From: Escherichia phage P694
Sequence record: NC_028863.1
Reading direction: 5' to 3' (one strand)
Length of the DNA: 40,477 bases
Position 1 is the stretch's first letter; every line of letters starts with the position of its first letter. Under the pieces are notes generated by a model, which worked only from the letters and a program-made list of their open reading frames with translations, was not told where the DNA came from and made no database searches. Shown in pieces: positions 1,589 through 7,977 of this stretch. Made by a program: the position numbers and the translations under genes.

Positions 1589-3348
1589 TGTCACAATCCC
1601 AAGAAGCTAAGAATGCGTTAATCATTGCGCAACTTAAGGGTGATTTTGTTGCTTTCTTATTCGTCTTATGGAAGGCTCTGAACTTACCTAAACCAACCAA
1701 GTGTCAGATTGATATGGCACGTACACTCGCTAATGGTGACCACAAGAAGTTTATCCTTCAGGCGTTCCGTGGTATCGGCAAGTCCTTTATCACCTGTGCG
1801 TTCGTTGTGTGGGTCTTATGGCGTGATCCTCAACTTAAGGTGCTCATCGTGTCTGCCTCTAAGGAACGTGCTGACGCTAACTCCATCTTCATCAAGAACA
1901 TCATTGACCTGCTGCCATTCCTCGCTGAGTTAAAACCTCGACCGGGACAGCGTGACTCTGTGATTAGCTTCGACGTTGGCTTGGCGAAACCCGACCACTC
2001 ACCCTCTGTGAAGTCTGTGGGTATCACTGGTCAGTTAACTGGTAGCCGTGCTGACATCATCATTGCAGATGACGTTGAGGTTCCCGGCAATAGCTCTACG
2101 AGTTCGGCCCGTGAGAAGCTCTGGACGTTGGTAACTGAGTTTGCTGCGTTACTTAAGCCACTGCCTACCTCTCGTGTTATCTACCTTGGCACACCTCAAA
2201 CCGAGATGACGCTCTACAAGGAACTTGAGGATAACAAAGGGTACAGCACTGTAATCTGGCCTGCACAGTATCCACGTAATGACGCTGAGGCTCTCTACTA
2301 TGGGGACCGCTTGGCTCCGATGCTTAAGGCTGAATACGATGAAGGCTTTGAGTTACTTCGTGGTCAACCTACTGACCCTATTCGATTCGATATGGATGAC
2401 CTCCGTGAACGTGAACTCGAATATGGCAAAGCTGGCTACACGCTTCAGTTCATGCTTAACCCGAACCTTAGTGATGCCGAGAAGTACCCGCTACGACTCC
2501 GTGACGCTATCGTGTGCGCTGTGGACCCTGAACGTGCCCCATTGTCTTACCAGTGGTTGCCGAACCGTCAGAACCGCAATGAGGAACTCCCTAACGTTGG
2601 TCTGAAGGGTGATGACATCCATGCGTTCCATACGTGCTCTTCTCGTACCGCTGAGTATCAGTCTAAGATTCTGGTCATTGACCCAAGTGGTCGTGGTAAG
2701 GATGAGACCGGGTATGCAGTCCTGTACTCACTTAACGGTTATATCTACTTGATGGAAGTCGGTGGGTTCCGTGGTGGTTACGATGATGCTACCCTAGAGA
2801 AGCTCGCTAAGAAGGCCAAGCAGTGGAAGGTACAGACAGTCGTCCACGAGTCCAACTTCGGTGATGGTATGTTCGGTAAGATTTTCTCTCCGATTCTCCT
2901 GAAGCACCACAAGTGTGCCTTAGAGGAAATCCGTGCTAAAGGCATGAAGGAGGTGCGAATCTGCGATACTATCGAACCATTGATGGGTGCGCACAAGCTG
3001 GTCATTCGTGATGAGGTTATCCGTGAGGACTACCAGACTGCTCGTGACCTTGATGGGAAACATGATGTTCGCTACAGTGCGTTCTATCAGATGACCCGTA
3101 TGACCCGTGAGCGAGGCGCTGTGGCACACGATGACCGACTTGATGCTATCGCATTGGGTATCGAGTTCCTGCGTGAAGGGATGCTTGTGGACAGCCGTGT
3201 AGGTGAAGAAGAGATGACCCTTGAGTTCCTTGAACACCACATGGAGAAACAGACCATTGGTGGTGATGCTATCCATAGCTACGATGTTGGTGGCGTGGAC
3301 ATCTACTACGAGGACGATGGAGACTCTAGCTGCTTCATTGAGTGGTAA
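1588..3348 (+). CDS. 19: Terminase large subunit (DNA maturation protein B)
   Basis: 586 aa, same length as T7 gp19 with high similarity as recalled; ATG overlaps the 18.5 stop. Confidence 0.95.
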
Positions 3349-5156: not shown

Positions 5157-5615
5157 ATGATTTACACTAACGAACCTGCAAACGTATTCTATGTACTGGT
5201 ATCAGCGTTCCGCTCCAACCTCTGCGATGAAGTCAATATGAGCCGTCATCGTCACATGGTTAACTCACTGCGTAATGCACCACTTGAATACGGTAGCGTT
5301 GAGTCTACAAATTTGACTGGTTGTTATCGAGAGGTTATCGCAAGTGCACCAACTGAGGAACTGACCGTTCGTGTACGCTGTGCTAACAAAGCTCAAGCAA
5401 TAGCGGTTGCACGTCTGGCGTGTAACGAGTTCGAGCAAGATTGTGTATTGGTCTATAAGTCACAGACGCACACGGCTGGCTTAGTGTACGCTCAAGGTAT
5501 TGCTGGCTATAAAGCTGAACGTCTGCCGGGTAGCTTCCAAGAAGTGCCTAAAGGCGCACCGCTTCAAGGTTGCTTCACGATTGATGAGTTCGGTCGCCGC
5601 TGGCAAGTACAGTAA
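5157..5615 (+). CDS. S-adenosylmethionine hydrolase/lyase (T3 gene 0.3-type anti-restriction)
   Basis: 152 aa; very similar to phage T3 SAMase as I recall it (MI.T.EPA.VFYVLVSAFRSNLCDEVNMSRHRHMV ... GCFTIDEFGRRWQVQ). Confidence 0.85.
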   Translation: MIYTNEPANVFYVLVSAFRSNLCDEVNMSRHRHMVNSLRNAPLEYGSVESTNLTGCYREVIASAPTEELTVRVRCANKAQAIAVARLACNEFEQDCVLVYKSQTHTAGLVYAQGIAGYKAERLPGSFQEVPKGAPLQGCFTIDEFGRRWQVQ

Positions 5616-5697: not shown

Positions 5698-6060
5698 ATG
5701 GCTATGTCTAACATGACTTATAACAACGTTTTCGATCACGCTTACGAAATGCTGAAAGAAAATATCCGTTATGATGACATCCGTGACACTGATGACCTGC
5801 ACGATGCAGTGTACATGGCTGCTGAAATCGCCGTTCCGCACTATTACAGTGACGTTTTCAGCGTAATGGCTAGCGAAGGCATTGACCTTGAGTTCGAGGA
5901 CTCTGGTCTGATGCCGGACACCAAGGACGTAATCCGTATCCTGCAAGCGCGTATCTATGAGCAATTAACGATTGACCTTTGGGAAGACGCTGAGGACTTA
6001 CTGAACGAGTATCTTGAGGAAGTCGAAGAGTCTGAAGAGTACGAGGAGGATGAAGAGTAA
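5698..6060 (+). CDS. ocr: Ocr, DNA-mimic anti-restriction protein (T7 gene 0.3-type)
   Basis: 120 aa, strongly acidic, near-identical to T7 Ocr as recalled ([37 protein letters not shown]...). Confidence 0.95.
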
Positions 6061-6215
6061 TGGCTAACAACACCACGCAATACGGTCTGACCGCTCAAAC
6101 TGTACTGTTTTATAGTGACATGGTGCGCTGTGGCTTTGATTGGTCGCTCGCAATGGACCACCTTAAGGAACTGTACGAAAACAACAAGGCAATAGCCTTG
6201 GAGTCTGCTGAGTAA
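6060..6215 (+). CDS. 0.4: gp0.4-like (T7 FtsZ inhibitor homologue)
   Basis: 51 aa, ...QYGLTAQTVLFYSDMVRCGF.WSLAM..LKELYENNKAIALESAE matches T7 gp0.4 as recalled; ATG overlaps the ocr stop. Below the ORF-track length cutoff. Confidence 0.8.
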   Translation: MANNTTQYGLTAQTVLFYSDMVRCGFDWSLAMDHLKELYENNKAIALESAE

Positions 6216-6260
6216 TAAACCCAAGGTCGCTCCTAGCGAGTGGCCTTTATGATTATCACT
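6216..6260 (+). promoter_or_regulatory. RNase III-like hairpin (R0.5-like), near-identical copy 2
   Basis: Direct repeat of 5621..5669. Confidence 0.55.
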
Positions 6261-6284
6261 TTAACATGCAATAGGACTAACACC

Positions 6285-6485
6285 ATGAGTAAACTTCTGG
6301 CAACATCTAAAATCAAAGGCCAACACACTGTAACACTGCGAGAGTATGATCACGGGGCAATGGGTAGCACCTACGTTGTGCGATACGGTAAACAAGTCAC
6401 ACATTGGGTAAACGAGGTTTTGGCACAGGAGGAGTATCAAGCCTGTATGATACACCAAGCAACATGTGCAGGCTGGAATGACTGA
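6285..6485 (+). CDS. Hypothetical early protein (gene 0.5 position)
   Basis: 66 aa from ATG 6285 with AGGA-like RBS; the upstream in-frame ATG 6240 lies inside the hairpin. Confidence 0.5.
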   Translation: MSKLLATSKIKGQHTVTLREYDHGAMGSTYVVRYGKQVTHWVNEVLAQEEYQACMIHQATCAGWND

Positions 6486-6518
6486 TGACGCTATTTGCAC
6501 TCTATGAGGTAACACCAC

Positions 6519-6716
6519 ATGTTATATACATTTGTTGCACTCGTTTACACTCTAATCGCGCTGTACTTCCTTCGAGACTTCCGCAATGGTCTCAAGGTAC
6601 ACAAGGCTAACTTCTCGCACCTGAAGTATGGCTTTCTACCACGATTCACAGCCCGTGAACGTAACGGGCGCTTTAAGGCTAACAAGGTAGGTATCTTCTA
6701 TGTTGCAACACACTGA
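6519..6716 (+). CDS. Hypothetical early protein with hydrophobic N-terminus (gene 0.6 position)
   Basis: 65 aa; GAGGT RBS; a +1-frame ORF 6700..6864 overlaps its 3' end. Confidence 0.5.
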   Translation: MLYTFVALVYTLIALYFLRDFRNGLKVHKANFSHLKYGFLPRFTARERNGRFKANKVGIFYVATH

Positions 6717-6864
6717 TAGTTTAACTAAGAAAGTTCTGTACACACTGGCATATGGTGCTACCAACAAGACTCTAATGCGATCATTGCACCTGAAGCGGCT
6801 ACCAGCCAGAAAGGTGGCAAAGGCACGTAAAGAAGCGCGTTTAATCCTCAATTCTCTCTCTTAA
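6700..6864 (+). CDS. Small basic ORF (54 aa) overlapping the end of the gene 0.6-like ORF; possible 0.6B-type extension or independent gene
   Basis: ATG 6700 (AAGGTAGG upstream) to TAA 6862..6864; basic tail KRLPARKVAKARKEARL. Confidence 0.3.
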   Translation: MLQHTDSLTKKVLYTLAYGATNKTLMRSLHLKRLPARKVAKARKEARLILNSLS

Positions 6865-6891
6865 AGTCTCAACTAAATAGGACACAATCTA

Positions 6892-7977
6892 ATGAACTAC
6901 ACCGACATTCAGGCACGTCTGGAAATCATCAAGTCTCTACCGCTTAGCGAACTGGACAAGCGCCAGCCTCTTTTGGTCGAACTGGCTGCTGACATCGTGA
7001 ACGGTGAAACGTGCGATGGTAACGCCACCGATGGCTCGAACGGCTTGGAGTATCAGGACTGGTGGCACACATTGGGTGCACTGATGTGTGATGCAGGTTT
7101 CCGCATGTTGGGTAATGGTCACTTTAGTGCGGCATACTCGCATGAACTGTTACCGGGTCGAGTCATCAAGGTTGGCTTTAAGAAAGAGGATTCAGGCGCT
7201 GCATACACTGCATTCTGTAGGATGCACCAAGGCCGAGCGGGTATCCCTAACGTCTATCACGTAGCACGTCATGCAGGTTGCTATACGGTCGTACTGGACC
7301 GCTTAAAAAGCTGTGACGACGATAATGATGACCATGGGGCATACGCTGACATCGCGCGTTGCTTTGTGGAGTCGGATTACTATGACTCAAGCGACTTTGC
7401 ACCGGGTGACTACGAGTTCATCGAGACATGCAAGATGATTCGTGAGTTCTTCAACGGTATTGCATCTTTCGACATGCACAGCGGGAACATTATGTTCGAC
7501 GATAACGATGTTCCGTACATCACTGACCCGGTGAGTTTCTCACATGACCGTGAACGTGAGGACGGTTTCCCTCTGGACCCGGAAGCACTGATTGCCGAGG
7601 TCGAGGCGATAGCTAACGAGCGCATCATTGAACGTTGTCGCAACCGCAAGGCCAAGCGTGACCCTAATGGAACCTTTCAGGTTAACCGCAAGGCCAACAT
7701 GAAACGCCGTAAGTGCAACCGTAAGTTACACGTCAAAGGCATGGCACAGTTTGTTAAAGGTCGCATCGAACGCAGGGCCATTGATAGAAACGAACGCCGT
7801 GCTGAGATGCTCATGGGGTCTGCATGGAATAACTTCTGGTTCCGCAATGGTCCCTCAGCGGCACGCAAGGTTGAACAAGTGAACGGCCTTAAGTGGCAAC
7901 TAGGGGACCGCCTCGCAATCCAAGCGGGTCTCCCTCTGAATATCGACAAGGTACTTGACGCTCAACTGATGGGCTGA
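6892..7977 (+). CDS. 0.7: Ser/Thr protein kinase, host shutoff (T7 gp0.7-like)
   Basis: 361 aa; conserved motifs GNGHFSAAYSH, VIKVGFKKEDSGAAYTAFCRM, FDMHSGNIMF as in T7 gp0.7. Confidence 0.9.
   Translation: MNYTDIQARLEIIKSLPLSELDKRQPLLVELAADIVNGETCDGNATDGSNGLEYQDWWHTLGALMCDAGFRMLGNGHFSAAYSHELLPGRVIKVGFKKEDSGAAYTAFCRMHQGRAGIPNVYHVARHAGCYTVVLDRLKSCDDDNDDHGAYADIARCFVESDYYDSSDFAPGDYEFIETCKMIREFFNGIASFDMHSGNIMFDDNDVPYITDPVSFSHDREREDGFPLDPEALIAEVEAIANERIIERCRNRKAKRDPNGTFQVNRKANMKRRKCNRKLHVKGMAQFVKGRIERRAIDRNERRAEMLMGSAWNNFWFRNGPSAARKVEQVNGLKWQLGDRLAIQAGLPLNIDKVLDAQLMG

Follow-up and report, generated by a model that had tools for sequence, protein, structure and literature searches.

We analysed positions 6285 to 6864 of the genome of Escherichia phage P694 (NC_028863.1). 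The window is the whole 40,477-nucleotide (nt) record, a circularly permuted 40.5-kb genome of a T3/T7-like podovirus. Between the gp0.4 homologue and the gene for a 0.7-type kinase lie three small open reading frames (ORFs) of 66, 65 and 54 amino acids (aa), the third of which overlaps the end of the second in the +1 frame. This is the layout described in an earlier note on this DNA, and its coordinates were confirmed, as was its description of the 54-aa ORF as rich in lysine and arginine (12 Lys+Arg in 54 residues). The features of the region are as follows:

6285..6485 (+): ORF1, gene 0.45 homologue; ATG 6285, stop 6483-6485, 66 aa, Shine-Dalgarno (SD) sequence AGGA at 6273-6276
6519..6716 (+): ORF2, T3 gene 0.6 homologue; ATG 6519, stop 6714-6716, 65 aa, SD sequence GAGGT at 6506-6510
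6700..6864 (+): ORF3, gene 0.65 family; ATG 6700, stop 6862-6864, 54 aa, isoelectric point (pI) 11.1, +1 relative to ORF2
6684..6716 (+): 0.6/0.65 junction ("socket"); SD-like AAGGTAGG at 6684-6691, ATG 6700-6702, ORF2 stop TGA 6714-6716

We consider it probable that these are separate accessory genes, that ORF3 has a start of its own and that the end of gene 0.6 serves as a socket which has received different genes.

Coding evidence and relatives of the three ORFs

ORFs of these lengths are frequent by chance, with 64 ORFs of ≥ 25 aa in a six-frame list covering 4.5 kb, and the reality of ORF1, ORF2 and ORF3 was therefore judged on PHROG matches and codon changes. Each of the three matched a PHROG over its full length (ORF1: phrog_6500, E = 9e-44; ORF2: phrog_2385, E = 1.7e-27; ORF3: phrog_10380, E = 2.5e-28, residues 1-54), all of which are labelled "unknown function". 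We also counted synonymous and non-synonymous codon changes versus relatives in each frame. For ORF1 there were 144 synonymous and 73 non-synonymous changes in its own frame, versus 28/206 and 15/203 in the other frames; for ORF2 the corresponding counts were 1085/532 versus 172/1494 (with 56 stops) and 88/1574 (with 28 stops), and for ORF3 they were 39/22 versus 11/48 and 0/59. The alternative frames of all three ORFs were dominated by non-synonymous changes and contained stop codons, while their own frames contained no stops. Taken together, the PHROG matches and the own-frame excess of synonymous changes indicate that ORF1, ORF2 and ORF3 are protein-coding and under purifying selection. The earlier note had regarded these genes as candidate novel inhibitors, but they correspond to genes 0.45, 0.6 and 0.65, which are already catalogued in the T3/phiYeO3-12 group, with near-identical copies in GenBank, so that the window contains no element of a new kind.

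Two further candidates were rejected. A 41-aa ORF at 6485-6610, which starts at an ATGA overlapping the stop codon of ORF1 and extends into ORF2, overlaps ORF2 in another frame and has no PHROG match; as the alternative frames of the ORF2 region are not conserved, it is probably not a gene. An extension of ORF1 to GTG 6240 was rejected because N-terminal extensions are not conserved in the homologues and this one would overlap a hairpin.

ORF2 (pI 10.6) is 69% identical to T3 gp0.6 and has homologues in 573 phage records, mainly from Klebsiella phages, and the gp0.6 alignment contains 31 invariant columns across genera. The N-terminus of ORF2 is a hydrophobic helix at approximately residues 2-18 (Kyte-Doolittle value 2.2 over the first 15-18 residues). 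The C-terminal domain is conserved and basic, with a net charge of +9, and ends in ...RFKANKVGIFYVATH (family pattern ...NGRFKANKVG.FY.ATH); under the positive-inside rule it would be expected to face the cytoplasm. In the record of ETEP21B the ORF2 homologue is labelled as transmembrane (TMHMM note) with the topology N-in C-out. Searching bacterial genomes for gp0.6 gave only two stray matches, one on a 749-bp scaffold and one a truncated copy, and no evidence of a cellular homologue. The truncated gp0.6-like ORF is located at 2971-3189 of the 116.6-122.8 kb region of Mangrovicoccus ximenensis NZ_QBKZ01000003 (locus L070), among ORFs that look unrelated and differ in composition; a chimeric assembly or a contaminant seems likelier than a cellular gene.

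Erwinia phage FE44 encodes a protein 100% identical to ORF3, and this exact sub-type is rare, being found in 13 phage records. A T3-0.65-type protein matches the same PHROG (7e-29) and shares the family motif, and ORF3 is only 35-39% identical to the T3-0.65-type rows of the alignment. A profile built from the window type and the T3 type retrieved 65 proteins, and a search of 1.84 billion protein representatives with the 0.65 profile gave 16 cluster representatives, nearly all of them small (45-77 aa) as in the query family. Two long repeat proteins (362 and 556 aa) matched the 0.65 profile over 18-19 residues only and were treated as spurious; the long repeat-protein match P0090 is a low-complexity repeat. 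In the family motif, AYG[AS]...[PT]AR, G19 and R37 are invariant and A17, Y18 and A36 occur in ≥ 90% of 60 sequences. The structure predicted for ORF3 by AlphaFold2 (AF2) is a three-helix bundle (pLDDT 86.4; helices 7-17, 22-31 and 36-53). ORF3 has the layout of the family, with a hydrophobic helix, AYG[AS], ...[PT]AR and a long C-terminal helix, and also its position, with a +1-frame start inside the 3' end of gene 0.6 and the 0.7 kinase downstream.

ORF1 (pI 6.9, net charge 0) has homologues in 156 phage records. Over 66 aa it is 88% identical to gp0.45 of phiSG-JL2 and 83% identical to what is annotated in phiYeO3-12 as "putative 0.45 protein"; both are of the same size as ORF1 and have the same SD context. 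ORF1 and the gene 0.45 of both phages lie upstream of gene 0.6; however, in phiYeO3-12 and phiSG-JL2 gene 0.45 directly follows the S-adenosylmethionine (SAM) hydrolase gene, whereas ORF1 follows a T7-type Ocr and gp0.4. The SD context of ORF1, ATAGGACTAacaccATG, is identical to that of ORF2 of Citrobacter phage SH2 (PMC4925675). The fold predicted for ORF1 by AF2 consists of four beta strands and a C-terminal helix, and two of the five models were poor.

The junction between ORF2 and ORF3

The ATG of ORF3 is embedded in the Tyr-Val codons of ORF2 (TAT-GTN), 14 nt before the ORF2 stop codon, so that the two ORFs overlap by 17 nt with ORF3 at a +1 offset. The SD-like sequence AAGGTAGG lies 8-12 nt upstream of this ATG, and its duplex with the anti-SD sequence (-8.9 kcal/mol) is stronger than those of ORF1, ORF2 and the kinase. 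From this arrangement, with the start embedded so close to the gene 0.6 stop and placed after an SD-like sequence, the translation of ORF3 is probably coupled to that of gene 0.6.

We compared the junction in 60 IMG/VR loci and GenBank relatives, and placed 65 loci on a neighbour-joining tree of gene 0.6 (123 nt). The end of gene 0.6, ...KANKVGIFY[VI]ATH-stop, was conserved across genera. An ATG at position -14 was present in 47 of the 65 loci on the tree, and in 47 of these 47 it opened a +1-frame ORF of 27-287 codons. By contrast, none of the 15 loci in which the kinase follows 18-47 nt after gene 0.6 has this ATG, and none has a downstream gene; at these empty slots ACA, ATA or TCG stands in the place of the ATG and gene 0.6 reads Tyr-Ile. 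The remaining three loci without the ATG are T3, where the annotated start is a UUG one codon later, and two loci with Bro-N genes which have their own start further downstream. The state of the ATG changes at least seven times on the gene 0.6 tree. As a frameshift would not require an ATG, this covariation of the ATG with the presence of a cassette argues for a separate start, and we conclude from these comparisons that ORF3 most likely starts at its own ATG as a gene in its own right and does not arise by a frameshift.

The +1 frame is closed by a TAG at 6688-6690, nine nucleotides before the ORF3 ATG, and any frameshift is therefore confined to 6691-6713. Inspecting this interval by eye, we found no known +1 or -2 slippery motif, and folding of 6660-6760 gave no stimulatory RNA structure at the overlap (z = +0.8 versus shuffled sequence). 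Members of the ORF3 family also exist outside the overlap: in phage P1338 a stand-alone ORF3-type copy lies after another cassette and begins MNYTD, and the 0.65-family members P0089 and P0093 have unrelated N-termini.

The earlier note had suggested looking for frameshifting at ~6700. In a programmed +1 frameshift, ribosomes translating ORF2 would slip near its end and produce an ORF2-ORF3 fusion of ~115 aa, like the "possible gene 0.6B" of T7. Such an event would agree with the frame relation and the overlap, which match the T7 annotation (0.6B joined from two pieces, 337 nt, with one base skipped), with a junction DNA that can be aligned by eye with that of T7, and with the pO103 record, in which the downstream ORF is labelled "Gp0.6B, occurs due to frameshifting". 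However, the interval in which a shift could occur is short and has no known slippery motif, no stimulatory structure was found, ORF3 has its own ATG and SD-like sequence, and the occurrence of the ATG perfectly tracks that of a cassette; moreover, stand-alone copies of the module exist, unrelated genes including an endonuclease VII start at the same ATG, and 0.65 is annotated as a separate gene in T3, all of which makes a frameshift very unlikely here. We also considered whether one or more of the ORFs could be a chance frame, or a gene-caller artefact which has been propagated between records, without a functional protein. Small ORFs are abundant by chance, the database names are all "hypothetical protein", the ETEP21B record has no annotated ORF across ORF3, and PhiV-1 lists only one feature across the matching interval, for which close relatives list two; but all three ORFs show an own-frame synonymous excess without stops, the 0.65 family is conserved down to 26-41% identity with its motif residues invariant (G19, R37) or nearly so (A17, Y18, A36), gp0.6 retains its invariant columns across genera and the structure models are confident. 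An artefact is hardly credible on this evidence.

Several points nevertheless weigh against three separate genes with a coupled start at a socket. The loci compared are related to each other, so that 47 of 47 does not mean 47 independent events, and the tree is built on only 123 nt. Loci without the ATG have an SD-like sequence of the same strength (-7.0 vs -7.5 kcal/mol); this sequence is a by-product of the Lys-Val-Gly codons, meaning that it permits initiation but is not evidence of selection; SD strength was accordingly dropped as a sign of selection, as loci with the ATG were no stronger than those without. The N-in C-out topology in the ETEP21B record predicts the opposite of the orientation expected for ORF2. 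Finally, we infer translation, coupling and membrane location in this phage from sequence.

Interchangeable genes and their genomic setting

We found that the embedded ATG starts at least eight different downstream gene families, which are listed here as types of cargo:

Cargo 1: the 54-aa type of the window
Cargo 2: the T3 0.65 type, 55-56 aa
Cargo 3: a 77-aa extended relative, phrog_23914
Cargo 4: a 72-aa basic helical protein, phrog_8393
Cargo 5: 59-60-aa proteins, phrog_12100 and a variant
Cargo 6: small hydrophobic peptides, 27-31 aa
Cargo 7: an endonuclease VII-family nuclease (Pfam, 1.6e-25)
Cargo 8: a Bro-N protein (Pfam, 3e-10), at one locus

The endonuclease VII-family nuclease was found at the embedded ATG in loci L013 and L023 (IMG/VR, Klebsiella-type phages), from ~1685, and is possibly a mobile nuclease gene which borrows the gene 0.6 coupling site. 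A Bro-N/Ant-like protein of ~275 aa occupies the slot in loci L040, L043, L062 and L048 (truncated in L048); in L040 the embedded ATG opens the frame of its gene, and in L043, L062 and L048 the gene has its own downstream ATG. A few proteins of the 0.65 family carry Pfam PF26807 or follow a different upstream gene (MIKYGITLEDLKYYRF...) which also contains an MS(L/Q)R start context in its end (locus L065, IMG/VR 2974603841, 819-1175; proteins P0049, P0060 and P0065), and this context at the end of another gene means that the socket may not be exclusive to gene 0.6.

On its 3' side the slot is bounded by the leader of the kinase gene:

6873..6894 (+): 3' boundary of the slot, kinase leader and ribosome-binding site CTAAATAGGACACAATCTAATG, conserved

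In phage P1338 (PP882707, locus L067, 1140-1670) this 22-mer leader is repeated before three consecutive genes, namely the stand-alone ORF3 homologue, a 66-aa gene and the kinase. The repetition suggests that cassettes may be gained and lost by recombination between repeated leaders, a mechanism which we infer. The P1338 homologue of ORF3 starts with the first five codons of the kinase, MNYTD, and because these are the kinase N-terminus it looks like a recombination scar. In PC127 (locus L001, 2186-2386) and P1338 (locus L067, 1386-1586) the ORF3 homologue and the kinase are separated by an extra 66-aa gene (MINERPLFIKF..., phrog_29417, labelled unknown function), which the window lacks.

The genes and features which surround the three ORFs are:

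5157-5615: T3-type SAM hydrolase (152 aa)
5698-6060: T7-type Ocr (120 aa)
6060-6215: gp0.4 homologue; 8 of 51 residues differ from T7 gp0.4 (manual count)
6223..6247 (+): R0.5-like hairpin between gp0.4 and ORF1, with a 10-bp stem
6892-7977: 0.7-type kinase, named gp0.7-type kinase in the closest records
from 8051: RNA polymerase

The window has ~92% identity across 24 kb to Berlinvirus phages such as pO103 and to the close relatives D226, P483 and 285P. The DNA around the three ORFs is a local mosaic, with the ORF1 half and the ORF2/ORF3 half matching different sets of phages, and the presence or absence of ORF1 and of ORF3 varies among close relatives. Two distinct anti-restriction genes, the T3-type SAM hydrolase and the T7-type Ocr, stand in tandem in the window, whereas most relatives have one; the pair also occurs in at least Escherichia phage P151 and Shigella phage VB_Ship_A7.

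The hairpin (fold of 6210-6284: -16.3 kcal/mol, z = -2.0) occupies the place where T3 and T7 have the R0.5 RNase III site; in T3, R0.5 is annotated between gene 0.3 and gene 0.6. By analogy it is probably the 5' end of a processed mRNA which carries ORF1, ORF2, ORF3 and the kinase. The gap between ORF3 and the kinase is 27 nt, and a comparable RNase III-type site would not fit into it, so the kinase is probably on the same processed mRNA.

Possible functions and comparison with T3, T7 and other accessory slots

The earlier note placed the three ORFs among class I genes of unknown function, and in this it was borne out: scans of the three proteins against Pfam, NCBIfam and PADLOC gave nothing above threshold, there was no PDB sequence match, and their PHROGs carry no functional label. 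Profile searches of the PDB with all three families returned designed helical proteins only, or no match, and when 60 members of the gp0.65 family were scanned against Pfam, the matches were scattered and at noise level. In the supplements of the accessory-gene screen of Silas et al. we looked for five peptides diagnostic of the three proteins and found none (0/5), and in the literature on gp0.45, 0.6, 0.65 and 0.6B we found genome-annotation tables only and no functional study. Passages in two articles state that T7 Gp0.4 inhibits FtsZ (PMC5624674) and that T7 Gp0.6 targets MreB (PMC5624674 and PMC6965359); the inhibition of MreB by T7 Gp0.6 cannot be transferred to ORF2 or ORF3. T7 without genes 0.3-0.7 has wild-type infectivity in the laboratory (bioRxiv 10.1101/2021.08.23.457391). 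This deletion, together with the class I location and the patchy presence of ORF1 and ORF3, supports by analogy an accessory, host-directed role for the three genes, for which the T7 neighbours Gp0.4 and Gp0.6 offer a precedent; a role as host-takeover or anti-defence factors is plausible.

The predicted structures suggested two more specific roles, neither of which we favour. ORF3 could be a free-standing helix-turn-helix (HTH) protein of the sigma region 4/LuxR type which would bind DNA, or mimic sigma region 4 on host RNA polymerase, and so aid host transcription shut-off beside the 0.7 kinase. Its predicted three-helix bundle (pLDDT 86), its very basic pI and its position directly upstream of the kinase are consistent with this, but none of the 60 family members has a Pfam HTH or sigma match, even at E values up to 10, hhalign gave a probability of < 1% against manually entered sigma region 4 and LuxR alignments, and the 0.65 family is dispensable, with a patchy distribution in close relatives; we therefore think it unlikely that ORF3 is a protein of this kind. 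Similarly, ORF1, with its predicted sheet and helix, could be an AP2/integrase-arm-type DNA-binding domain and thus a small DNA-binding regulator, a role which we also doubt given its net charge of zero and neutral pI, the lack of an above-threshold Pfam match and the poor models among the AF2 predictions.

The explanation which we prefer is that the region consists of three separate, translated and non-essential early accessory genes, 0.45, 0.6 and a member of the 0.65 family, in a Berlinvirus-like phage. By analogy with T3 and T7, host RNA polymerase would transcribe them in the first minutes of infection, and the mRNA segment would start at the R0.5-type hairpin and include the kinase. Ribosomes would initiate ORF3 at ATG 6700, coupled to the translation of gene 0.6. 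The 3' end of gene 0.6 and the kinase leader would together form a socket that has accepted at least eight different genes in related phages, with the ATG mutated away when the slot is empty. ORF2 would be anchored in the inner membrane with its basic domain towards the cytoplasm, ORF3 would be a very basic three-helix protein acting on nucleic acid or on a nucleic-acid-binding protein, and ORF1 would be a neutral sheet-plus-helix protein; each may bind a host component and so aid takeover or blunt a host barrier. Our confidence is high for the part of this explanation which concerns gene organisation and low for the proposal that each protein is a small binder of a host component. A more far-reaching version, in which the end of gene 0.6 is a dedicated plug-in socket for swapping early effectors, the cargo consists of host-specific anti-defence or takeover factors and T7 0.6B is a separately initiated member, is speculative, and we would not expect all of it to hold.

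If the gene 0.6 end serves as a socket for both recombination and translation, with many alternative small early genes, its cargo would be candidate host-interaction factors in the T7-like phages that infect E. coli, Klebsiella, Salmonella and Yersinia. Two confident structure models now exist for families of no known function, and should any of these proteins prove to be an anti-defence or takeover factor, this would be relevant to the choice and engineering of therapeutic T7-like phages.

The closest parallel to the region is T3 (NC_003298), in which the gene order of 0.6, an overlapping 0.65 and the 0.7 kinase is the same as in the window. The names 0.6 and 0.65 are also used in Yersinia phage vB_YenP_AP5 (PMC4283147). 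The frame offset of the overlap is the same in T3 as in the window; however, the overlap annotated in T3 is 14 nt, because gene 0.65 there starts with a UUG which lies one codon downstream, whereas ORF3 starts with an ATG.

The likeness to T7 is confined to the junction. The DNA of the T7 0.6A/0.6B junction aligns by eye with that of the window, both have a +1-frame ATG 14 nt ahead of the stop codon, and the last 13 residues of the two upstream proteins are alike (KINKIGSGYDRTH vs KANKVGIFYVATH). Outside this stretch T7 0.6A shows no relationship to ORF2 (hhalign E = 0.012 across just 24 columns), and T7 0.6A likewise resembles T3 gp0.6 in its last ~13 residues only. The tail of T7 0.6B belongs to phrog_8393 and is not homologous to ORF3, which belongs to phrog_10380. 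The earlier note had likened the overlap to the T7 0.6A/0.6B arrangement: a related junction with a +1-frame overlapping ORF is indeed common to both, while a slippery site, a dependence on the upstream start and homology of the tails are not part of the likeness. In T7 (NC_001604; locus L004, ~981-1000) the ATG stands at the identical position, GGCT-ATG-ACAGAACGCAC-TGA, in a frame that reads MTERTDGLKKGY..., and over 35 aa the frame opened by it, MTERTDGLKKGYMPNGTLYAANRRIVRTWRENNLE..., shares 77% identity with the pO103 cassette, which lies behind a T3-type gene 0.6. The same tail behind two different upstream genes is easier to explain as a separate gene, and the T7 "possible 0.6B" may, judging from this comparison, be a separately initiated protein of ~63 aa. 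T7 "possible gene 0.6B" is annotated as a frameshift fusion (NC_001604), while the evidence from the window favours a separate start; the annotation is made doubtful, although not disproved. An overlap of 0.6 and 0.65 which reflects a coupled separate gene and not a frameshift would thus call into question a T7 annotation that is 40 years old.

The arrangement also belongs to a wider group of systems. Coupled overlapping genes and "moron"-type accessory slots share the features of a start within the end of the upstream gene and of variable, dispensable cargo between conserved flanks. Unlike general moron slots, the region described here has an overlap of the window's 17-nt type, with the start lying in two codons of the upstream gene, that is conserved across genera, and its start is switched off in the empty slot by a change of Tyr-Val to Tyr-Ile.

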